This document shows positions 11,464 through 53,907 of a stretch of DNA of 64,000 bases, piece after piece (position 1 is the first letter of the stretch; each line of letters opens with the position of its first letter). The stretch spans positions 12,228 through 76,227 of the forward strand of contig CASDTH010000045.1 in assembly GCA_949283655.1 (NCBI GenBank). Direction: 5' to 3'. The notes beneath the pieces are model-generated. The model ran no database searches and was not told the DNA's origin. It saw nothing but the letters and a program-made list of their open reading frames with translations. The position numbers were made by a program, and so were the translations under genes. The DNA comes from an uncultured bacterium. Its GTDB lineage: Bacteria > Bacillota > Clostridia > Oscillospirales > Acutalibacteraceae.

Positions 11464-13182
11464 GTGGCGGCACAGGATATAAAAGCGGCCAAAACCAAAG
11501 CAGGATCAACTGTTTTGGAGGTTTTTCTCGCTACCACACCGTTTGTTTTCGGGCTGTATTATGAATATAGCGCCTGCTTTGCAGCAGTGCTTTTGCTGGG
11601 GCTGTTACTCTATCTGATAGCTATAGATCGCTCGCTGGAAGTCCGTGTGGGCGCAACCTCCGCCGCCCTGCTGGCTTTGCTCGCGGGCTACCTTGTCACC
11701 CCGCTCTGGGCAGTGGATAGCGGCATGGCTCTGCTCGGTTTTTTCAAGTTCTTACCCGCCGCCCTGTTTTGGCAGCTGCTCATGCAGCTCGGCCCGGAGG
11801 AGCGGGAAAAGCTCTTGCTCACCGTGCCGGTATCCGGCGCTGTGATGACGCTGCTCTCCTTTCCCACGCGGTGGATTCCGGCCCTTACACCCTATTTCTA
11901 TGCCTCCGGCAGGCTGGGCGGCTTTTTTCAATATTCCAACACGTTCGCCCTCTTCCTGCTGCTGGGGATTATCGTCCTCGCTTTTCAAAAACGGCGGCGA
12001 GCGTTTTGCCTGGCCGGGATTCTCGTGCTGCTCTTCGGTATTTTCGCCACCGGCAGCCGCACGGTTTTTGTGCTGACCGTTCTTGCTTTCCTCTGGATTT
12101 GTCTGGCGCGCAAGCGGCTGCGTCTCCCGCTGCTTATTATGCTCCTTGCGGGGGTTACGGGCGCGCTCCTCTTCGTCGCCGTCACCGGCAAGACGGATAC
12201 CATCGGCCGCTTTTTGACCATTTCACTCGAATCCAGCACGCTGCTCGGCCGGCTGCTCTATTACCGGGATGTGCTGCCCGTTATCCTGACGCACCCCTTT
12301 GGCTTGGGCTATATGGGATATTATTATGCCCAGGGCGGGTTCCAAACCGGCGTTTACGTTACAAAATTCGTCCACAACGAGCTATTGCAGTTCGCTGTGG
12401 ACGTGGGGTGGATTCCGGCTCTCCTGCTCGCGTGTGCGCTGCTGCAGCGGCTTTTTTCCAAACGGACGCCCACCATGCAGCGGATGCTGGTGTTCGCCAT
12501 CTGTGCGCACGCCATGCTGGATTTTGATTTGCAGTTTCTCGCTGTTTTTTTCGTGCTGCTGTTGGCGCTGGAGCCAGAGGAGGGGCGGGCTTTCACGCGC
12601 GCCTACAAGCGCCGCAGCCGCCTGCTCCCCATCGCCCCGGCAGGTGCACTCGCCGTGGCGTGCCTCTATTGCGGCGCGGCACTGTTTGCCGGATACCTTG
12701 GGCAGGATGCGCTGGCCTCCCGGCTCTACCCCGGTTACACGCCCTCGCAGCTGGTGCTGCTCGCCGGGGCCCGCACGCCGCGGGAGGGGGAAGCGCGCGC
12801 GAATGCGATTTTAAGGCGCAATGAATCGGTCGCCCTGGTGTGGGATGCAAAGGCGCTGGTGTGCGCCACGCAGGGCGATTTTGAAACGATGGTGCAATAT
12901 AAGCGGCAGGCGCTTGCCTGCGCGCGCTATGCGCTGCCGGAATATCTCGATTATTTTCAGCTGCTGCGCCGGGCGGCTGAGGCCTGCGAGCGGCAGGGGG
13001 ATGCGGCGCGTGCCGCGCTCTGCCGCCAGCGGATGTTAGAAATTCCGGATTTGCTGGATGAGGTGCGCGCCATTACCAGCCCGCTGGCCTGGAAAATTCA
13101 GGATCAGCCGGAGCTGACCCTGCCGGAGGAATACCAGGAGGAGCTCGCCAGAATCGGGCGGCAAGCGCCCGATTCTGAATAG
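11464..13182 (+). CDS. O-antigen ligase/Wzy_C-like polytopic membrane protein with a soluble C-terminal helical-repeat region
   Basis: 572 aa with many TM segments. FATGSRTVFVLTVLAF and HNELLQFAVDVGW resemble the Wzy_C core. GTG start after GGGAGGGG. Confidence 0.7.
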   Translation: MAAQDIKAAKTKAGSTVLEVFLATTPFVFGLYYEYSACFAAVLLLGLLLYLIAIDRSLEVRVGATSAALLALLAGYLVTPLWAVDSGMALLGFFKFLPAALFWQLLMQLGPEEREKLLLTVPVSGAVMTLLSFPTRWIPALTPYFYASGRLGGFFQYSNTFALFLLLGIIVLAFQKRRRAFCLAGILVLLFGIFATGSRTVFVLTVLAFLWICLARKRLRLPLLIMLLAGVTGALLFVAVTGKTDTIGRFLTISLESSTLLGRLLYYRDVLPVILTHPFGLGYMGYYYAQGGFQTGVYVTKFVHNELLQFAVDVGWIPALLLACALLQRLFSKRTPTMQRMLVFAICAHAMLDFDLQFLAVFFVLLLALEPEEGRAFTRAYKRRSRLLPIAPAGALAVACLYCGAALFAGYLGQDALASRLYPGYTPSQLVLLAGARTPREGEARANAILRRNESVALVWDAKALVCATQGDFETMVQYKRQALACARYALPEYLDYFQLLRRAAEACERQGDAARAALCRQRMLEIPDLLDEVRAITSPLAWKIQDQPELTLPEEYQEELARIGRQAPDSE

Positions 13183-13218
13183 AAACAGGCAAATTTCCCA
13201 GCCCGTAGGGGATTGGGC

Positions 13219-13238
13219 GGTCGGGTCTTGACCCGACC
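13219..13238. repeat. 20-nt palindrome, module H (GGTCGGGTC TT GACCCGACC)
   Basis: Perfect 9-bp arms. Same architecture as the palindromes at 48138, 53405 and 53747. Confidence 0.8.
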
Positions 13239-13520
13239 GGAACATACTGTCATTTTCATTTGTGGCGCGGCCATGAGATTTTATTTATTTTTGAATGACT
13301 GACAGGTTTCGCTGTACGCGACTATCTTCTCTTACTTCTGTAAGAGAAGATAGGAAGAGAAGCAGCCAAGGGGTTTCACCCCTTGCCCCCGCGCACGGCC
13401 AGCGGCGACACTGAGATGTTTTTATACCTCTTTTAGGTGTTCGGCAAGCCACCCAAAAAACTCGCTGCCACACGGCAGCACAAACATTTTGGGCGTTTGC
13501 TTTTCGCCTGAAAGGCGAAA
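13236..13520 (-). repeat. Inverted, more degenerate copy of the B-type repeat unit (left arm of the 13.2-13.9 kb palindrome)
   Basis: 13256-13407 is the reverse complement of the B-unit tail seen at 48378-48520 and 13836-13918 (CATTTGTGG.GCGGCCATGAGATTTTATTT, CTGTACGCGAC, hairpin 13322-13353, AGAGAAGCAGCC). 13440-13521 is a weaker inverse of the B core. Confidence 0.75.
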
Positions 13521-13521
13521 A

Positions 13522-13627
13522 GTCCCCTCACGGGCCCGCCGCAAGTGCGCGGAGCCTGCCGCCGCTGGCCTACTGGTAGAGGGTTCCTCAAAGCAAGACT
13601 GAAGACCCCGTCAGGTTTCTCCCGGAG
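13522..13627 (+). repeat. Repeat module A, copy 1
   Basis: GTCCCCTCACGGGCCCGCCG..GCCTGCCGCCGCTGGCCTACTG..GGTTTCTCCCGGAG, shared with 48031-48129 and 48754-48870. Confidence 0.8.
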
Positions 13628-13628
13628 C

Positions 13629-13921
13629 CCGCAAGCCGTTCAGGGTCTCAAACGTAACGATAGGCCCAGGCGGCAGCTGCTGTCATTCACTGCGTGCACG
13701 TGAGGGCATTTGCTCGCTTTGCGGGCAAACGAACCTTCCCGCCTGTTTGAAGCCGCGTGAGCGGCTGAGTTCGGGAAGCGTTCGCCGAACGCGTTGTGGT
13801 GTAGCAAATTGATATACCGCCGCCGCAGTGCCGTTCACGGGGTCGAGGGGCGAAGCACCCGGCTGCTTCTCTTGGTTCGTTCTCTTGCTTCTGCAAGAGA
13901 ACCAGCATCGGCGTACAGGCC
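13629..13921 (+). repeat. Repeat module B, copy 1 (core 13629-13836 plus tail)
   Basis: Near-identical to 48170-48378 and 53437-53648 over the blocks ATAGGCCCAGGCGGC, CGTGAGGG, CGAACCTTCCCGCCTGTTTGA, GAGTTCGGGAAGCGTTCGCCGAACGCGTTGTGGTGT and ACCGCCGCCGCAGTGCCGTTC. Confidence 0.85.
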
Positions 13922-16423
13922 CTATTCAAAAAAACGCGCTGCCTCCGCTCCGTCTCCTTCGCGTGCCTGCGCCACAGGAGGAACTGCCTGCACAATCAGA
14001 AATGCTCCATCCTGCACTGTGCAGGCATATTCTCCCCCCTCCTCCAACCTGCCGCTGAGCAGCTCTTCACTGAGCAGGTCCTCAATTTGGCTCTGCACCG
14101 CCCGGCGCAGCGGCCGGGCGCCATATGTCTGGTCAAATCCCGCGTCCGCAATCCGGCGCAGCGCTTCTTCGCTGAAGGTGAGCGTAATCCCTTTTTCCAA
14201 AAGTCTCCGCGAAACGTTGGCAAGCATCCGCCGGGCGATCTCCTCAAGCTCCGCCCGGGCCAGCTGGCGGAACACAATGATGTCATCCACACGGTTGAGG
14301 AATTCCGGCCGGAAGGTGCGCTTAAGCTCATCCATCACCGCTGTGTGGATTCGCTTTTCCTCCCCTTGCGCGCCGGTATCTCCTGAAAAGCCCAGTCCAC
14401 TTCTCCGGTTGGAGATCATGGTGGCGCCAACGTTAGAGGTCATGATGAGAATGCAGTTTTGAAAGCTCACCTTCCTCCCCTGAGAATCCGTCAGGCGGCC
14501 GTCCTCCAGAATTTGCAGCAGCATATTGAATACATCCGGGTGCGCCTTTTCAATCTCATCAAACAGCACCACGGAATACGGCCTTTTGCGCACCCTTTGC
14601 GTGAGCTGCCCCCCCTCCTCATAGCCGACGTATCCGGGCGGGGAGCCAACCATGCGGGAGACGGTGTGCTTTTCCATATATTCCGACATATCCAGCCGGA
14701 TCATCGCGTTCACATCCCCAAACATTGCCTGTGCCAGCGCCTTGCTCAGCGCTGTTTTGCCCACGCCCGTCGGCCCAAGAAATAAAAAGGAGCCGAGCGG
14801 CCGCTCCGGATCCCGCAGGCCAACACGGGCACGGCGCATTGCGCGGGCCACTGCGCGGACGGCCTCCTCCTGCCCGACAATGCTCTGATGAAGCTCCTCC
14901 TCCAGGTGGAGCAGCCGCCGGCTCTCCTCTGCCGTGAGCTGCTGCACCGGGATCCCTGTCCACATGGATACAATCTCCGCAACGCCCTCCTCGGTGACTG
15001 CTCCCGCCGTGTGGGAGGAGCGTTCCTGCCAGGCGCTTTTGTCCCGTGAGAGATCTGCCCGCAACTGCTTCTCTTCATCCCGCAGGCTGGCCGCCCGTTC
15101 AAATTCCTGGGCGTTAACCGCCGCCTCCTTTTCGGTTTGCAGCGTTTCCAGCCGGTTTTCCAGCTGCTTGAGATCAGGCGGCTCCTTATAAGCCTGCATC
15201 CGCACATGGGAGGCAGCTTCGTCAATTAAATCGATTGCCTTATCCGGCAGAAAGCGGTCGGCAATATAGCGGGCCGACAGCCTCACTGCAGCCTGGATCG
15301 CCTCATCGGTAATGCGCACCCTATGATGCGCCTCATATTTATCCCGAAGGCCTTTGAGGATTTCCACCGCTTCCTCCTGCGAGGGCTCGGCCACATGGAC
15401 CGGCTGAAACCGGCGCTCCAATGCGGCATCCTTTTCAATATGCCTACGGTATTCCTCCAGGGTCGTCGCGCCGATCATCTGGATTTCCCCTCGTGCCAGC
15501 GTAGGCTTAAGGATATTGGCGGCGTCAACCGCGCCCTCCGCCGCGCCTGCCCCTATAAGATTATGCACCTCATCAATAAACAGAATCACATCCCCCGCTT
15601 TGCGCACCTCCTCCAGCGCGGTTTTCACCCGCTCTTCAAAATCGCCCCGGTATTTGGTGCCCGCCACCATAGCGGTCAGGTCGAGCGAGACCAGCCGCTT
15701 ATCCCGCAGCCCTTCGGCAACATCCCCCTTGGCAATTTGGAGTGCCAGGCCCTCTGCCACAGCGGTTTTGCCAACGCCTGGCTCGCCGGTCAGGCAGGGG
15801 TTGTTTTTTGTGCGCCGGCTGAGAATTTGCATCACGCGCTCAATCTCCTTCTCTCGGCCAATCACAGGGTCAATCAGGTTCTGCGCCGCGAGCAGCGTAA
15901 GATCTCTGCCGTATTGGTCAAGCGTCGGGGTGTTGCTTTTATTTTTCCGGGTTGTTTTCTGTGCTGCCGAAGCCCCAGAAAGCCCTCCGCCCATGGAACG
16001 GGTCAGGTCAGCGAGCACATCCTGTGGAGAAACGCCCAGCTGAGTCAAAAAGTGAATTGCAAAGCTTCCACCCTCCTCGATAATTGCGATCAGTAGGTGT
16101 TCTGTCCCCACGTAGCTGTGCCCGAGCCCGCGCGCCTCCAAGATAGCCATTTCAATAATACGCTTGCAGCGGGGCGTAAAATCCGCCGGCGATAAAACCG
16201 TTTGTGCGCCAACGCCGATGGTGTGCCGCATGAGCTCTTCTACCTGCGCAGCGGTCACGCCGCGGCCGGCCAGCGCTACGCACGCCACGCCGCCCGTATC
16301 CCGTAGCAAGCCAATCAGAAGGTGCTCGCTGCCGATATAGGTGTGCCCAAGGGCCTCCGCCGTCTCCACAGCGGTGTTGAGCGCTGTATTCGCCTTTTCG
16401 GTAAAGCCGGTAAATTTATACAC
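13922..16423 (-). CDS. clpC: ATP-dependent Clp protease ATP-binding subunit ClpC
   Basis: 833 aa. Clp_N repeats (GHTYIGSEHLLIGLL / GHSYVGTEHLLIAII), two Walker A sites (GEPGVGKTA, GPTGVGKT), and a UVR-like FERAASLRDEE. GTG start after GGGGAG. Confidence 0.95.
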   Translation of the reverse strand: MYKFTGFTEKANTALNTAVETAEALGHTYIGSEHLLIGLLRDTGGVACVALAGRGVTAAQVEELMRHTIGVGAQTVLSPADFTPRCKRIIEMAILEARGLGHSYVGTEHLLIAIIEEGGSFAIHFLTQLGVSPQDVLADLTRSMGGGLSGASAAQKTTRKNKSNTPTLDQYGRDLTLLAAQNLIDPVIGREKEIERVMQILSRRTKNNPCLTGEPGVGKTAVAEGLALQIAKGDVAEGLRDKRLVSLDLTAMVAGTKYRGDFEERVKTALEEVRKAGDVILFIDEVHNLIGAGAAEGAVDAANILKPTLARGEIQMIGATTLEEYRRHIEKDAALERRFQPVHVAEPSQEEAVEILKGLRDKYEAHHRVRITDEAIQAAVRLSARYIADRFLPDKAIDLIDEAASHVRMQAYKEPPDLKQLENRLETLQTEKEAAVNAQEFERAASLRDEEKQLRADLSRDKSAWQERSSHTAGAVTEEGVAEIVSMWTGIPVQQLTAEESRRLLHLEEELHQSIVGQEEAVRAVARAMRRARVGLRDPERPLGSFLFLGPTGVGKTALSKALAQAMFGDVNAMIRLDMSEYMEKHTVSRMVGSPPGYVGYEEGGQLTQRVRKRPYSVVLFDEIEKAHPDVFNMLLQILEDGRLTDSQGRKVSFQNCILIMTSNVGATMISNRRSGLGFSGDTGAQGEEKRIHTAVMDELKRTFRPEFLNRVDDIIVFRQLARAELEEIARRMLANVSRRLLEKGITLTFSEEALRRIADAGFDQTYGARPLRRAVQSQIEDLLSEELLSGRLEEGGEYACTVQDGAFLIVQAVPPVAQAREGDGAEAARFFE

Positions 16424-48005: not shown

Positions 48006-48030
48006 GTTTGGATTTGCGGCGCAGCCAAAC

Positions 48031-48129
48031 GAGTCCGCCGCAGGTTTGTGGAGCCTGCCGCCGTTGGCCTATTGAAAGGCCTCAGCCTCAGCGATCAACT
48101 GAAGGCCCTGGGAGGTTTCTCCTGGAGAG
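48031..48129 (+). repeat. Repeat module A, copy 2 (5'-truncated)
   Basis: GAGCCTGCCGCCGTTGGCCTATTGAAAGG..GGTTTCTCCTGGAGAG aligns with 13550-13627. Confidence 0.75.
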
Positions 48130-48137
48130 ATGAGTAG

Positions 48138-48157
48138 GGAACGGTCTCGACCGTTCC
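48138..48157. repeat. 20-nt palindrome, module H (GGAACGGTC TC GACCGTTCC)
   Basis: Perfect 9-bp arms, preceded by TAG and followed by GACCCGG as at 53405. Confidence 0.8.
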
Positions 48158-48169
48158 GACCCGGTGAGA

Positions 48170-48552
48170 CCTGTAAGCAGTTCAGAGCCTCAAACATAAC
48201 GATAGGCCCAGGCGGCCTTAGATGCCACTCCCTGCGTGCGCGTGAGGGAATTTGCCCGCTATGCGGGCAAACGAACCTTCCCGCCTGTTTGAGCCGCCGT
48301 GAGGCGGTGAGTTCGGGAAGCGTTCGCCGAACGCGTTGTGGTGTGGCAAGTTTAAAAACCGCCGCCGCAGTGCCGTTCGCGGGGTCAAGGGGCGAAGCCC
48401 CCGGCTGGTTCTCTTCCTACCTTCTCTTACAGAAGTAAGAGAAGGTAGTCGCGTACAGCGAAACCAGGCACTCATTAAAAGCTAAAATAAAATCTCATGG
48501 CCGCACCACAAATGAAACATTGATGTTTGTTCCGCTCGGGCCGCAGGGGCCC
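48170..48552 (+). repeat. Repeat module B, copy 2 (core 48170-48378 plus complete tail)
   Basis: See copy 1. The tail carries hairpins GGGGCGAAGCCCC and 48417-48448, then CATGGCCGCACCACAAATGAAA and a terminal GGGCC..GGCCC hairpin. Confidence 0.85.
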
Positions 48553-48556
48553 AATT

Positions 48557-48723
48557 CAGACATCAGATATCAGACATGAGACGCCAGACGTGGAAGCTGG
48601 AAGCAATTGCCTCAGAGGCGGTGACAGAAAGTATTTTAGGGATAAAAATTTTCGCTTTTTATTGCGGAGGCAGGGCTTTATTGTAACCACATCTGAAATC
48701 TAACATCTGATATCTGGTATCTG
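48557..48723. repeat. S-K-S' palindromic element, copy 1
   Basis: Arms CAGACATCAGATATCAGACATGAGACGCCAGACGTGG (48557-48593) and CCACATCTGAAATCTAACATCTGATATCTGGTATCTG (48687-48723) flank a 72-nt core (48627-48698). That core is ~95% identical to 52205-52275. Confidence 0.8.
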
Positions 48724-48734
48724 TTTGGCGCTCG

Positions 48735-48870
48735 CTTGCCTGCAAGCAGGCAAGTCCCCTCACGAGCCCGCCGGAAGTAAGATGAGTTTGCCGCCGCTGG
48801 CCTACTGAAAGGCTCTGCCTCCGCGATAGACGGAAGGCCCCGAAAGGTTTCCGGCAATGCCTCGCCGGAG
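48735..48870 (+). repeat. Repeat module A, copy 3, with its own flanking hairpin
   Basis: CTTGCCTGC/GCAGGCAAG hairpin, then GTCCCCTCACGAGCCCGCCG..TTTGCCGCCGCTGGCCTACTGAAAGG..GGTTTCCGG. Confidence 0.75.
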
Positions 48871-48901
48871 GTTTGGTGATTCCGACAGGCCGGAACGGTC
48901 A

Positions 48902-48974
48902 AGTTAGACGGTAGATCGTAGAAATTAGATGGTAGATGAGAAAACCAAAAAGCCCTTGCCTCTGAGGCAGGAGC
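48902..48974 (+). repeat. Repeat module C, copy 1
   Basis: AGTTAGACGGTAGAT..GAAATTAGATGGTAGATGAGAAAACCAAAAAG plus a short hairpin and GCAGGAGC. It aligns with 53773-53844 and, with C/T changes, with 52131-52203. Confidence 0.75.
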
Positions 48975-49061
48975 TTCAATAAAATCAAGTCTAATATCCA
49001 ATTCCCACAGTCCAAAATCTAGCAATGAAATACTCCCAAAATAAAAAACGAAGGTGATGCT

Positions 49062-50123
49062 ATGCAAATGACAATGCGCTGGTTCGGCGCGCAGAAGGAT
49101 ACCGTTACGCTCGAGCAGATCCGGCAGGTGCCGGGGGTGACGGGCGTCGTCCCCGCCCTGCATGATTTGCCAGCGGGCGAAGCCTGGCCGCTGGACCGCA
49201 TTCTCGCCATGAAAGCGGAGATTGAGGCTGCCGGGCTCACGATGGAGTGCATTGAAAGCGTCAACGTCCATGAGGATATCAAGCTTGGCGCGCCCTCAGC
49301 CGGGCAATATATTGAAAACTATAAAACCTCTATCCGCAACCTGGCGAAAGCTGGTGTGAAGGTGATCTGCTATAACTTCATGCCCATCTTTGACTGGACG
49401 CGCACAGACCTTGCCATGCAGATGGGCGACGGCGCGACCTGCCTCTCCTACGACGGCGCGCAGATTGAGGGCAAAAGCCCGGAGGATATGTTCCGCGAGA
49501 TTGATGAAAACTCCAACGGATACGCCATGCCGGGCTGGGAAACCGAGCGGATGGGCGAAATTAAGGAGCTGTTTCAAAAATACAGGGGCGTGACGGATGA
49601 GGATCTCTGGCGCAACTTACAGCACTTTCTGGAGGAGATCATCCCTGTCTGCGAGGAATGCGACGTGAAGATGGCGATCCACCCGGATGACCCGCCATGG
49701 GGTATCTTTGGTCTGCCGCGCATCATCACGGATATCGCTGCGCTGCGCCGCTTTTTAAAGCTGGTGGACAGCCCCTATAACGGCCTGACCTTCTGCACAG
49801 GCTCGCTCGGCGCCAGCCTTCAAAACGATCTCCCCGCCATGATCCGCGAGGTCGGAAGCCGCATTTATTTTGCGCACCTGCGCAATGTGAAGGTGGAGGG
49901 CAACCGCTTTCATGAAACCTCCCACCTGTCGGCGGATGGGTCGCTCGATATGTATCAAATCGTGAAAGCGCTTCAGGAGGTAGGCTTTGACGGGTATATC
50001 CGCCCCGATCATGGGCGGATGCTCTGGGGTGAAGTGGCCCGGCCAGGCTACGGCCTCTATGACCGTGCGCTGGGCGCAGCATATTTGAACGGCCTGTGGG
50101 AGGCTGTTGCCAAAAGCAAATAA
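49062..50123 (+). CDS. uxuA: Mannonate dehydratase
   Basis: 353 aa. The MQMTMRWFG start is typical of UxuA, with a xylose-isomerase-like TIM barrel. Confidence 0.9.
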   Translation: MQMTMRWFGAQKDTVTLEQIRQVPGVTGVVPALHDLPAGEAWPLDRILAMKAEIEAAGLTMECIESVNVHEDIKLGAPSAGQYIENYKTSIRNLAKAGVKVICYNFMPIFDWTRTDLAMQMGDGATCLSYDGAQIEGKSPEDMFREIDENSNGYAMPGWETERMGEIKELFQKYRGVTDEDLWRNLQHFLEEIIPVCEECDVKMAIHPDDPPWGIFGLPRIITDIAALRRFLKLVDSPYNGLTFCTGSLGASLQNDLPAMIREVGSRIYFAHLRNVKVEGNRFHETSHLSADGSLDMYQIVKALQEVGFDGYIRPDHGRMLWGEVARPGYGLYDRALGAAYLNGLWEAVAKSK

Positions 50124-52130: not shown

Positions 52131-52320
52131 AGTTAGATGTCAGATTCCGGACATGAGACGTCAGACGTGAAAACCAAAAGGCTTTCGCCACAAAGGCGGG
52201 AGCGGAAAGTATTTTAGGGATAAAAACTTCGCTTTTTATTGCGGAGGCGGGGTTTTATTGTAACCACATCTGAAAGCGGACATCCAATTTCCAGCATCGA
52301 ATATCTAAATTCGCATCTGC
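52131..52320. repeat. S-K-S' palindromic element, copy 2
   Basis: It starts at the nucleotide after the kdgK stop. AGTTAGATGTCAGATTCCGGACATGAGACGTCAGACGTG, core 52205-52275, then CCACATCTGAAAGCGGACATCC.. Confidence 0.8.
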
Positions 52321-52365: not shown

Positions 52366-53283
52366 ATGAAAAAATTACAGCTTTCGAGGCTTTCGGTTTG
52401 CTACTTCTGCTGCGCGGTGACGCTTTCCTTCCTCCAGCAGTTTGTATTTTCTTTTCTGTCCAGTTTCATCTCCTCCCGCAGTGCGGTTTTGGCGCAGATG
52501 GCAGTCCTCTTGCTGACAGCTATATTGGGGGCGGCTGCGATTGGCTCCTTTTTCCGATTTGCGCGCAAGGATGGGCAGCGCAAGGGGCTGGCAGTTGCGG
52601 CGTTTTTTCTTTTGTTCTTGGCAATCATCAATGAAATTGCTTTCAAAGGGCTATTTCAACCAAATGGTTCCGTCGCTTATAAAACGGCGTTTTATGCAAT
52701 AATCACCTTATTCAGCATTCAGACGCCTTTGACACTGATGGCCATACAATATGCGGAAGTCATTTCCAAAAAGAAATTAGTTGTGGCCACAGCGCTGCTT
52801 TATGTGTTAAGCCTGTTATGCAGCATCGTCATGCAGGGTTACAGCTTTTGGCTGATTGAATGCGTATCCCTATCCCAATGGGTACCCTCTGCGCAATACA
52901 CAATCAATGGCATCGGCTGGCTCGTTGTCCGCCTACTATCGTTTGCCGTGGCGATATTACAAGCGGTTTCCGCCGTGCTTTTCCTGCGGTTGATCCGTGC
53001 GGTGGAGCAGCCCTCGCCGGCCGGATGGGCGGGGCAACCGCAGCAAGCCGCGGGCATCGCCGGGAGCGATGCACCTTTGCGCCCGGGCGTTTGCCCGAAC
53101 TGCGGGCGGGATAACGGGCCCGAGGCCAATTTCTGCGCGGTGTGCGCTATCCCTTTAAAGCGCCCGGAGCCCCAAAGCGGCCTGGAGGGCTCCGGCTCCG
53201 GCCGCCGCTGCCCCTCCTGCGGCGTGCCGCTGGAGGCCGGCGAACACTATTGCCCGCTTTGCGGGAGCAAGGCGGAGGAATAG
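52366..53283 (+). CDS. Polytopic membrane protein with a C-terminal double zinc-ribbon
   Basis: 305 aa. About 6 hydrophobic segments, then CPNCGRDNGPEANFCAVCA and CPSCGVPLEAGEHYCPLCG. GAGGGG RBS. Confidence 0.6.
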   Translation: MKKLQLSRLSVCYFCCAVTLSFLQQFVFSFLSSFISSRSAVLAQMAVLLLTAILGAAAIGSFFRFARKDGQRKGLAVAAFFLLFLAIINEIAFKGLFQPNGSVAYKTAFYAIITLFSIQTPLTLMAIQYAEVISKKKLVVATALLYVLSLLCSIVMQGYSFWLIECVSLSQWVPSAQYTINGIGWLVVRLLSFAVAILQAVSAVLFLRLIRAVEQPSPAGWAGQPQQAAGIAGSDAPLRPGVCPNCGRDNGPEANFCAVCAIPLKRPEPQSGLEGSGSGRRCPSCGVPLEAGEHYCPLCGSKAEE

Positions 53284-53330
53284 ATATCAGATGTCAGACA
53301 TGAGACATCAGACGAGAAAGCCGGGAACGG
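53281..53330 (+). repeat. S module (YAGAY tract) starting at the stop codon of the preceding gene
   Basis: TAGATATCAGATGTCAGACATGAGACATCAGACGAGAAAG. Confidence 0.7.
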
Positions 53331-53404
53331 TTGCCTCCAAGGAGATTGCAGGTGGCTTTCCATCCGGCCGGGTCAAGACCCGACCCTACAATCAACTTTC
53401 GTAG

Positions 53405-53424
53405 GGAACGGCCTTGACCGTTCC
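53405..53424. repeat. 20-nt palindrome, module H (GGAACGGCC TT GACCGTTCC)
   Basis: One mismatch in 9-bp arms. A partial GGGTCAAGACCCGACC lies just upstream at 53368-53385. Confidence 0.75.
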
Positions 53425-53436
53425 GACCCGGCGTGA

Positions 53437-53648
53437 CCTGTAAGCAGTTCAGAGGCGCAAGCGGAAGGATAGGCCCAGGCGGCATTTGCTGACACTGACT
53501 GCGTGCACGTGAGGGGACTTTTTAGCCCGAAGGGCAAAAAGCGAACCTTCCCGCCTGTTTGAAGCCGCGTGAGCGGCTGAGTTCGGGAAGCGTTTGCCGA
53601 ACGCGTCGTGGTGTGGCAAATTGATAAACCGCCGCCGCAGTGCCGTTC
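53437..53648 (+). repeat. Repeat module B, copy 3 (core only)
   Basis: Same conserved blocks as copies 1 and 2. Hairpin 1 is replaced by CTTTTTAGCCC/GGGCAAAAAG, and the tail is replaced by an unrelated hairpin CATCCTTT..AAAGGATG. Confidence 0.85.
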
Positions 53649-53746
53649 CTCCACGTCCTTTTGCATCCTTTACCGACGAGGGAAAAGGATGGGCCCCGCG
53701 GCCTGAGCGGAAAATAGAAAATATAGCTTAGTCAATAGAACACCCC

Positions 53747-53766
53747 GGAACGGTCAAGACCGTTCC
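53747..53766. repeat. 20-nt palindrome, module H (GGAACGGTC AA GACCGTTCC)
   Basis: Perfect 9-bp arms. Confidence 0.8.
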
Positions 53767-53772
53767 CTATAA

Positions 53773-53844
53773 AGTTAGACGGTAAATTTTAGAAATTAGA
53801 TATTAGATGAGAAAATCAAAAAGTTCTGCCCCAGAAGCAGGAGC
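53773..53844 (+). repeat. Repeat module C, copy 2
   Basis: AGTTAGACGGTAAATTTTAGAAATTAGATATTAGATGAGAAAATCAAAAAG..GCAGGAGC. Confidence 0.75.
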
Positions 53845-53907
53845 CTAAAGGAATGAGAGTTAACCTTTCATTTTTGTATAAAAATTAAAAAAAGGACTGA
53901 TTGGACA

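Follow-up and report, generated by a model that had tools for sequence, protein, structure and literature searches.

Introduction

What occupies the 739 nt that separate two convergent genes in a compact Oscillospiraceae genome, and does the structure found there belong to those genes or to something that is carried among many sites? The question is raised by a spacer at positions 13183-13921 of a 64,000-nt stretch of DNA (the window) from an uncultured bacterium (GenBank assembly GCA_949283655.1, contig CASDTH010000045.1, positions 12,228 to 76,227). An initial annotation, made from the letters alone, described the spacer as a giant imperfect palindrome, by implication special to this locus and expected to be counter-selected; it placed the spacer between the stop of an O-antigen-ligase-like gene (13182) and the stop of the convergent clpC gene (13922), boundaries on which the list of open reading frames (ORFs) and a Pfam scan agree. 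Our analysis leads us to a different reading of its origin. The spacer is probably a composite copy of a new, lineage-specific family of non-autonomous, non-coding and hairpin-rich intergenic repeats, a mosaic that resembles bacterial interspersed mosaic elements (BIMEs), miniature inverted-repeat transposable elements (MITEs) and REPINs, the hairpin-forming doublets of repetitive extragenic palindromic (REP) sequences. The palindrome is a property of this dispersed mosaic element and not of the locus.

The source of the window is a close relative of Candidatus Fimivicinus intestinavium, a chicken-gut metagenome-assembled genome (MAG) of the Oscillospiraceae; genes common to the two are 85-95% identical at the DNA level and their ClpC proteins are 94% identical. 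A literature search on this genus turned up no account of repeats of this type. Comparison of the window with this MAG and with more distant relatives reveals a family that is multi-copy, modular, non-coding and intergenic, that has a palindromic unit and hairpins with compensatory changes, and that varies between relatives.

Results

The spacer is a continuous but degenerate palindrome

Alignment of the spacer with its own reverse complement recovers the palindrome over most of its length. By blastn, positions 13312-13918 match their reverse complement with 61% identity over 632 columns (E=3e-28), while a Smith-Waterman alignment scores 124, with 63.5% identity over 641 columns and a centre of symmetry near 13615. 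The same alignment of 100 dinucleotide-preserving shuffles scores 19.5±3.3 with a maximum of 28, which places the observed score at z ~32. Rather than the short scattered matches that would argue against a palindrome in a dot-plot-type comparison, the inverted diagonal is continuous, yet degenerate, and the giant imperfect palindrome of the initial annotation is therefore real.

The division of the spacer into an inverted B unit, a central module A and a forward B unit is right as a layout. The forward B (13628-13918) is 83% identical to 48170-48458 and 85% identical to 53437-53648 of the window by blastn; the inverted, degenerate B (13232-13547) is 73% identical to the reverse complement of 48226-48540; and module A (13489-13627) aligns with 48029-48127 and with 48724-48851. 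However, A is not an independent central module but the inner part of a larger unit. All the short complementary blocks that had been singled out are present, namely GCCGCCGCTGGCCTAC (13558-13573), ATAGGCCCAGGCGGC (13660-13674), CGTGAGGG (13699-13706) and CCCTCACG; the last of these lies at 13525-13532, 9 nt away from the position first given for it (13534-13541).

The palindrome belongs to a dispersed family of modules

The centre of the spacer is a 442-nt core (13395-13836) that consists of two units, X and B, placed head to head. Unit X, the left half (13395 to ~13620, + strand), covers columns 2 to ~235 of the hidden Markov model (HMM) of the family and is an inverted paralogue of B that has diverged from it. 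The right half, unit B (~13621-13836, + strand), is the best-conserved module, 83-85% identical to 48170-48378 and 53437-53648, and contains GCGAACCTTCCCG...GCCGC-GTGA-GCGGC...CGGGAAGCGTTCGC together with the palindrome GCGTTCGCCGAACGC. The two units meet at CCTGTAAGC, which coincides with the centre of symmetry. Upstream of 53908, where the spacers of the window and of the MAG locus L013 are orthologous, the two are collinear rightwards from CCTGTAAGC and unrelated leftwards, so that the border between X and B is a true junction of modules. The family HMM matches the core of the window on the reverse strand too (E=3e-24), as it does the cores of other members. Because X and B are old inverted duplicates joined head to head, the whole core is a degenerate palindrome.

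Further modules flank the core on either side. To the left is an inverted copy of a module termed ext1 (13239-13394, - strand), which an nhmmer search with the ext1 of 48379-48540 matches at 13392-13232 (E=1.4e-30). The hairpins of this copy include one at 13259-13292 that, with its T-run, resembles a terminator on the + strand, a perfect one of 14 bp at 13322-13353, and AAGGGG-TTTCA-CCCCTT at 13368-13384; the fold of the ext1 tail is weak, yet the + strand is favoured in every copy. To the right is a forward ext1 (13837-13918, + strand) with the hairpin TTCTCTTGC-TTCT-GCAAGAGAA at 13880-13901; this copy is shortened, being without the outer tail of the full 162-nt module, and stops 3 nt before the clpC stop codon. 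Beyond the inverted ext1 lie a small REP-like palindromic unit, GGTCGGGTC-TTGA-CCCGACC (13219-13238, strand not assigned), and a gene-proximal 3' flank (13183-13218, + strand) with the small hairpin CCCAGCCC-GTAG-GGGATTGGG, which is kept in a 92%-identical orthologue. The tail of L041, on which this rests, matches the window from the stop codon of the O-antigen-ligase-like gene through the REP-like hairpin and diverges thereafter.

The same modules recur in the window in clusters at 13183-13921, 48006-49061 and 53284-53907, with units in both orientations. The second locus (48027-48540, + strand), orthologous to the MAG locus L018, comprises a partial X, a REP-like hairpin, B and a full ext1; a separate fragment of X is found at 48724-48856 (+ strand, HMM columns 104-236). 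In the third locus (53433-53735, + strand), a solo B preceded by two REP-like hairpins is followed by a distinct module, ext2. Spacers as long as the one studied here had been called rare in a compact genome; the other long spacers of the window are full of the same modules, and such spacers are rare only as markers of repeat clusters.

Outside the window, an exact 19-mer of B marks 24 loci in Candidatus Fimivicinus intestinavium, the only species with true matches among 185,579 species representatives; a match in Syntrophus (L007) was judged to be chance. In metagenomes, a 23-mer of B located the family at one true locus (L037); its other match there (L036) is a chance one in coding sequence. 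In the set of loci fished with the exact 19-mer (L001-L025, MAG DVKY01), the MAG has at least 20 copies of B, solo or composite. A complete X+B core lies inside contigs at five loci (L011, L013, L017, L022 and L023), and contig ends cut it at a further four (L003, L009, L020 and L025). Solo B occurs at no fewer than 10 loci, and solo X at four MAG loci (L006, L024, L018 and L009) and at 48724-48856 of the window. Either side of the core can carry ext1 or ext2, in both combinations. Since X+B recurs as a unit across loci, and does so in another genome, the palindrome belongs to the element, and the view of it as a structure special to this spacer is not supported. Orthologous spacers of the window and the MAG have some modules in common and differ in others, and in the spacer orthologous to L018 modules have been swapped.

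The family is intergenic and, as had been proposed for the spacer, non-coding. Outside every ORF of at least 200 amino acids lie 32 of the 35 family matches; the remaining three overlap ORFs that we take to be spurious, and in the window one of these is antisense to clpC and one lies over a real gene (49062-50123). Orientation relative to the neighbouring genes is mixed. The ORFs that overlap the repeats at 13285-13473, 13687-13995 and 48130-48438 have no Pfam match, and no reading frame is open across all copies of the family. Rfam 15 gave no match in the window at the gathering threshold, and with E up to 10 a search of 13100-14000 returned a single match, to a model of a vertebrate long non-coding RNA (E=2.5), judged to be chance; a tRNA and tmRNA scan of the spacer found none. 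Collections of phages, plasmids and viral contigs (searched by blastn for phages and plasmids) gave no match to the family.

A broken element at a synteny breakpoint

The gene to the left of the spacer (11464-13182, + strand) encodes an O-antigen-ligase-like membrane protein with a Wzy_C domain (Pfam PF04932, E=2.7e-16) and a weak TPR match at its C-terminus. To the right, clpC (13922-16423, - strand) is a complete gene of the ClpC type, with Clp_N, two AAA modules, UVR and ClpB_D2-small. The initial annotation had suggested a comparison of the region 3' of clpC in related genomes, for which we used sets of clpC and Wzy_C loci (L027-L033 and L038-L040). Across four related lineages, Candidatus Fimivicinus intestinavium and two with 85% ClpC identity among them, the spacer 3' of clpC is 128-242 nt long and the family is absent; an ordinary GC-rich hairpin with a T-run is present in the three relatives' clpC spacers that were inspected. 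Neither the family HMM nor the REP pattern has a match in the clpC locus of Candidatus Fimivicinus intestinavium (L027) or in the loci from the 85% and 74% relatives.

Gene order differs as well. Downstream of clpC, the relatives have a 112-aa gene, spoIIP, gpr and rpsT, none of which is in the 64-kb window; in the 74% relative, dockerin and cohesin genes come after the Wzy_C gene. Homology to the clpC locus of Candidatus Fimivicinus intestinavium begins at 13916 and ext1 ends at 13918, which sets the junction of element and gene at 13916-13918. The adjacency of clpC and the Wzy_C gene is thus a synteny breakpoint, and the element that lies there is broken at its junction with clpC. Given a clpC homology that starts at 13916 and an ext1 shortened to 13918, a rearrangement or deletion through a repeat copy would fit better than a clean insertion and is the most likely origin of the arrangement at this locus.

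The support that other assemblies give to the join is confined to its two sides. In ERZ16268184, a scaffold with the Wzy_C gene ends at window position 13507 and a scaffold with clpC ends at 13695, so that 13508-13694 (187 nt) is supported solely by the window's own assembly; a contig of ERZ17292904 ends at 13716. The sole record retrieved for an identical ClpC was the scaffold with its end at 13695, which gives the join no independent confirmation. The copy in the window is also a mosaic. In a comparison of 13428-13836 with the MAG locus L003, unit X is 98.4% identical over 193 nt, which exceeds the 85-95% of the surrounding genes, and unit B is 86.6% identical overall, with the inner part of B seeming in the alignment to carry most of the difference. 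In the centre (13508-13694), identity to the window is 90.4% for L019, 92.6% over 68 nt for L010 and 88.8% for L003. Such a mosaic fits gene conversion between copies or a switch of path during assembly.

An assembly artefact, which the initial annotation had named as grounds for refutation, would mean that two repeat copies were joined in silico via their common X/B sequence and that this 739-nt palindrome does not exist as such; the locus would be lost and the family left unaffected. The contig ends within the spacer in both other assemblies and the cover of 13508-13694 by one assembly are compatible with such an artefact, as are the other neighbours that both flanking genes have in all relatives examined and the closer match of L019 and L010 in the centre of the mosaic. 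On the other hand, the two scaffolds of ERZ16268184 face each other within one spacer, as neighbours would, and contiguous X+B architecture is found at five loci inside contigs of an independent MAG. Divergence of 10-20% between copies is normally resolvable by assemblers, and gene conversion also predicts mosaicism. We regard an artefact as rather unlikely, with the doubt attached to the central join alone; the family stands either way.

Contigs of several short-read assemblies end within X, B or ext modules (L001-L025; L026, L031, L035 and L041), with L008, L020 and L025 each cut at an identical position of the element. One 1.9-kb contig has a Wzy_C orthologue as its only gene and breaks off in REP-like hairpins downstream of it. 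As contigs end inside the repeat modules, MAGs of the genus fragment, and the family is a major cause of this fragmentation.

Local hairpins covary and long-range helices do not

Both strands of the spacer are predicted to form one branched rod, far more stable than shuffled sequences, as the check by folding proposed at the outset bears out. Folded as RNA, the + strand reaches -367 kcal/mol (z -14.6) and the - strand -352 kcal/mol (z -10.7) against shuffles, while the core folded as DNA has z -6.5. The initial annotation had further held that each arm keeps its own local hairpins, as is the case, and that the locus could fold as a single cruciform with arms of about 300 bp. Near-perfect long palindromes are unstable in bacteria, where they cause SbcCD-dependent inviability. 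With arms that are only ~63% alike and carry many insertions and deletions, a cruciform of this size is unlikely and the instability of long perfect palindromes does not apply here.

An alignment of ten cores gives a consensus structure of 106 pairs in RNAalifold. Pairing holds in 96% of the cells of this structure and drops to 31-44% once the partners are slid. Compensatory double changes occur at 16 pairs, compared with 8.7±1.8 in column shuffles, and 0 of 500 shuffles reach the observed value. This covariation is confined to local hairpins, in one of which GCTGCC-ACAC-GGCAGC is set against GGCCAC-TCAC-GTGGCC and GACCGC-TCAC-GCGGTC in other copies; in unit X, the covarying local hairpins are helices 4-6 and 8. 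Three long-range helices would join X to B (GTGTTCGGC/GCCGAACGC, CCCCTCACG/CGTGAGGGG and TGCCGCC..GGCCTA/TAGGCC..GGCGGCA). These are essentially invariant in the ten-core alignment, with zero compensatory change, and their pairing is therefore indistinguishable from conservation of a motif that occurs twice. In stems predicted on both strands, G:T mismatches number 23 and A:C mismatches 20, a balance that gives no sign of one particular strand as the functional single strand. A weak trend towards a mirror image is seen, in that the - strand is favoured for X and the + strand for B. Unit B has a GTGA loop of the GNRA type on its + strand, and X has one on its - strand. Parts of unit B are nearly invariant. 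No sigma-70-like promoter site is conserved; the spacer has three matches to the consensus, which the family as a whole does not keep.

These features invite the proposal that X and B, or the whole core, are genes or 3'-untranslated-region domains for a structured functional RNA, and so members of a multi-copy RNA family. The very strong fold z-scores of both strands, the compensatory substitutions in hairpins, the GTGA loop in its two orientations, the near-invariant parts of B and the retention of orthologous copies between species are all in keeping with it. Handling as single-stranded DNA predicts covariation of hairpins equally, however, and the long-range helices do not covary. The lack of a strand asymmetry in the mismatches, of a conserved promoter-like site and of an Rfam family even at E up to 10, together with the mixed orientation to neighbouring genes, also speaks against a functional RNA, and the modules are truncated and recombined with a freedom that would be intolerable for a folded RNA. 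On balance, we think it improbable that the family encodes one. That the structure evolved in place as a device specific to this locus, a cruciform or giant bidirectional terminator, would suit its position between convergent genes, the terminator-like hairpins that face both of them and the strong predicted structure, but is barely credible when every part from 13219 on copies a module that recurs at other sites, in all gene contexts, when a short ordinary terminator serves in the orthologous clpC spacers and when arms 63% alike make cruciform extrusion implausible.

Small REP-like hairpins and a second repeat family

The small hairpin at 13219-13238 is one of 24 REP-like sites in the DNA compared, 18 of which have GTAG immediately 5' of the stem. 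The consensus is 5'-GTAG-GGAACGGTC-TTGA-CCGTTCC, of which the form in the spacer is a variant, with GTAG 12 nt upstream of the stem. Other copies in the window are at 48138-48157, 53366-53385, 53405-53424 and 53747-53766. REPs of the GTAG/CGTC type are defined as imperfect palindromes of 20-40 bp with an unpaired tag at one end (PMC3733652), and those of the GTAG superfamily are thought to be mobilised by REP-associated tyrosine transposases (RAYTs) (PMC3733652; PMC2817692; PMC3333891). The text of the GTAG/CGTC survey leaves Firmicutes unmentioned (PMC3733652). Judged by their sequence, the small hairpins fit the REP definition; X, B and ext1 do not.

The window also holds a second, unrelated family of palindromes of ~165 nt, whose arms are tandem arrays of 7-nt units (TCAGACA / ATCTGAT, TAGATGG) around a GC-rich central hairpin. 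Copies lie at 48556-48723, 52131-52308, 53282-53358, 48905-48938 and 53789-53808, and at 6680-6720 of L038. In two cases the palindrome begins right where the upstream gene ends, at its stop codon (52130 and 53283). The heptamer family gave 14 matches in 9 sequences, and an array is found at the 3' end of the Wzy_C gene in the 74% relative too. One gene (52366-53283) is flanked by repeat clusters, with a heptamer palindrome upstream and a cluster of REP, B and ext2 downstream; it encodes a protein of 305 amino acids that inspection by eye suggests to be a membrane protein with C-terminal zinc-ribbon-like CxxC motifs.

Discussion

Our data suggest a model in which the spacer is a composite repeat, its core bracketed by two inverted copies of ext1 and adjoining a small REP-like hairpin. 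Differences at orthologous sites suggest that the modules have spread and been reshuffled by transposition, by recombination between copies, or by both. Because GTAG tags 18 of the 24 small hairpins, a mechanism like that of REPs and BIMEs, or of REPINs, is the best analogy. The element would also have brought signals to its neighbours: a terminator-like hairpin with a weak stem would face the Wzy_C gene (13259-13292, + strand), while a better one would face clpC, where the - strand of unit X has a hairpin followed by U6 that resembles an intrinsic terminator in a terminator scan (13480 to 13455). From the position of the latter, a structured clpC 3' untranslated region of ~450 nt is predicted.

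Several observations weigh against a mobile, non-autonomous family of this kind. No target-site duplication was found around the core or the composite, whose flanks are ext1 or ext2 and whose right end is truncated, and the core ends, AACGGCCAGCGGCGGC and GCCGCCGCAGTGCCGTT, define only an imperfect inverted repeat of ~17 nt, which is part of the palindromy of the whole length rather than a pair of distinct termini. The ~330 kb of DNA compared yielded neither a transposase nor any other associated gene. Mobility is deduced solely from the ways in which relatives differ, and recombination or deletion could have produced these differences as well. In size, both the units (~220 nt) and the composite (~680 nt) go well beyond classical REPs and the majority of bacterial MITEs. 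The compensatory changes, and orthologous copies conserved about as well as neighbouring genes, suggest constraint beyond that of pure junk, and the high conservation of B is partly an ascertainment bias, since the loci were fished with an exact 19-mer from it.

The search for a partner took several forms. An all-against-all megablast of the compared loci revealed no long repeat like an insertion sequence (IS), and phmmer with an approximate IS200 TnpA query found nothing among ORFs of at least 90 amino acids in the same DNA, which is a weak test. Three ORFs of ~895 amino acids beside elements (897, 898 and 893) were considered as a partner gene and proved mutually unrelated. The GTAAGC at the inner end of B is reminiscent of the inverted repeats of IS66; there is no matching inverted end, and the idea was dropped.

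A bolder reading is that X and B are themselves a new class of giant REP-like elements in the Clostridia, in effect giant REPINs that a domesticated enzyme of the HUH/Y1 type would handle as folded single-stranded DNA along with the GTAG hairpins, or else a new multi-copy structured RNA. If true, this would account for the compensation in hairpins, for complementary blocks that do not vary from one arm to the other, for abrupt module borders and for the survival of orthologous copies across species; we give it a small chance. A new mechanism would be revealed only if a dedicated enzyme or an RNA function were found. Under the interpretation that we favour, a composite copy of a non-autonomous repeat family, the modules explain the presence of 0.6-1 kb spacers in a compact Oscillospiraceae genome and document a system like that of REPs and BIMEs, GTAG-tagged hairpins included, in an uncultured lineage of the Clostridia. 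The position of the spacer at a synteny breakpoint further suggests that the repeats may drive rearrangements.

Comparison with known repeats places the family among familiar kinds. The BOX elements of Streptococcus pneumoniae are built of boxA, boxB and boxC modules of 45-60 nt in variable content and have a stable predicted structure. The family shares with them its modularity, a Gram-positive host and stable predicted folding; in contrast, its modules are larger, its sequence is unrelated, and BOX is not a head-to-head doublet. Like the MITEs ERIC/IRU, Correia/NEMIS, RUP and bcr1 (PMC3733652), it is non-coding, multi-copy and intergenic, often lies near gene ends and would form robust hairpins when transcribed. 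Unlike them, it has yielded neither a target-site duplication nor a cognate IS, its terminal inverted repeat is poorly defined where 15-30 bp is the MITE criterion, and the element exceeds 70-300 bp and is built of separable modules.

The resemblance to REPs, BIMEs and REPINs is closer. As in BIMEs (PMC2817692, PMC3333891, PMC3733652), palindromic units in alternating orientation form extragenic clusters, in a mosaic with short motifs, between tandem and convergent genes; the units can co-fold into larger structures, and the small hairpins carry the 5' GTAG tag of the GTAG REP superfamily. The differences lie in size, with X and B at ~220 nt and ext1 at ~160 nt being 5-10 times as long as REPs (20-40 bp), in a host from the Clostridia, and in the absence of sequence similarity and of an identified RAYT in the compared DNA. 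REPs and BIMEs usually exceed 100 copies per genome; in the fragments of the MAG that were compared, the B 19-mer marks at least 24 loci. REPINs (PMC3116915) offer a parallel to the core: what is repeated there is a doublet of inverted units set head to head, able to fold into a single long hairpin, with singlets occurring and orthologous copies persisting between related species. The X+B doublet likewise recurs as a unit and folds as one branched rod, but at 442 nt rather than ~100 nt, and with halves of ~220 nt that are ~60% identical, where those of REPINs are near-identical, and long-range helices that do not covary. With the target duplication of MITEs lacking and the link to RAYTs drawn by analogy alone, we file the family as neither MITE nor REP/REPIN. 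It is new and restricted to the Candidatus Fimivicinus lineage, and represents a familiar kind of repeat that is unusual mainly for the size of its units.

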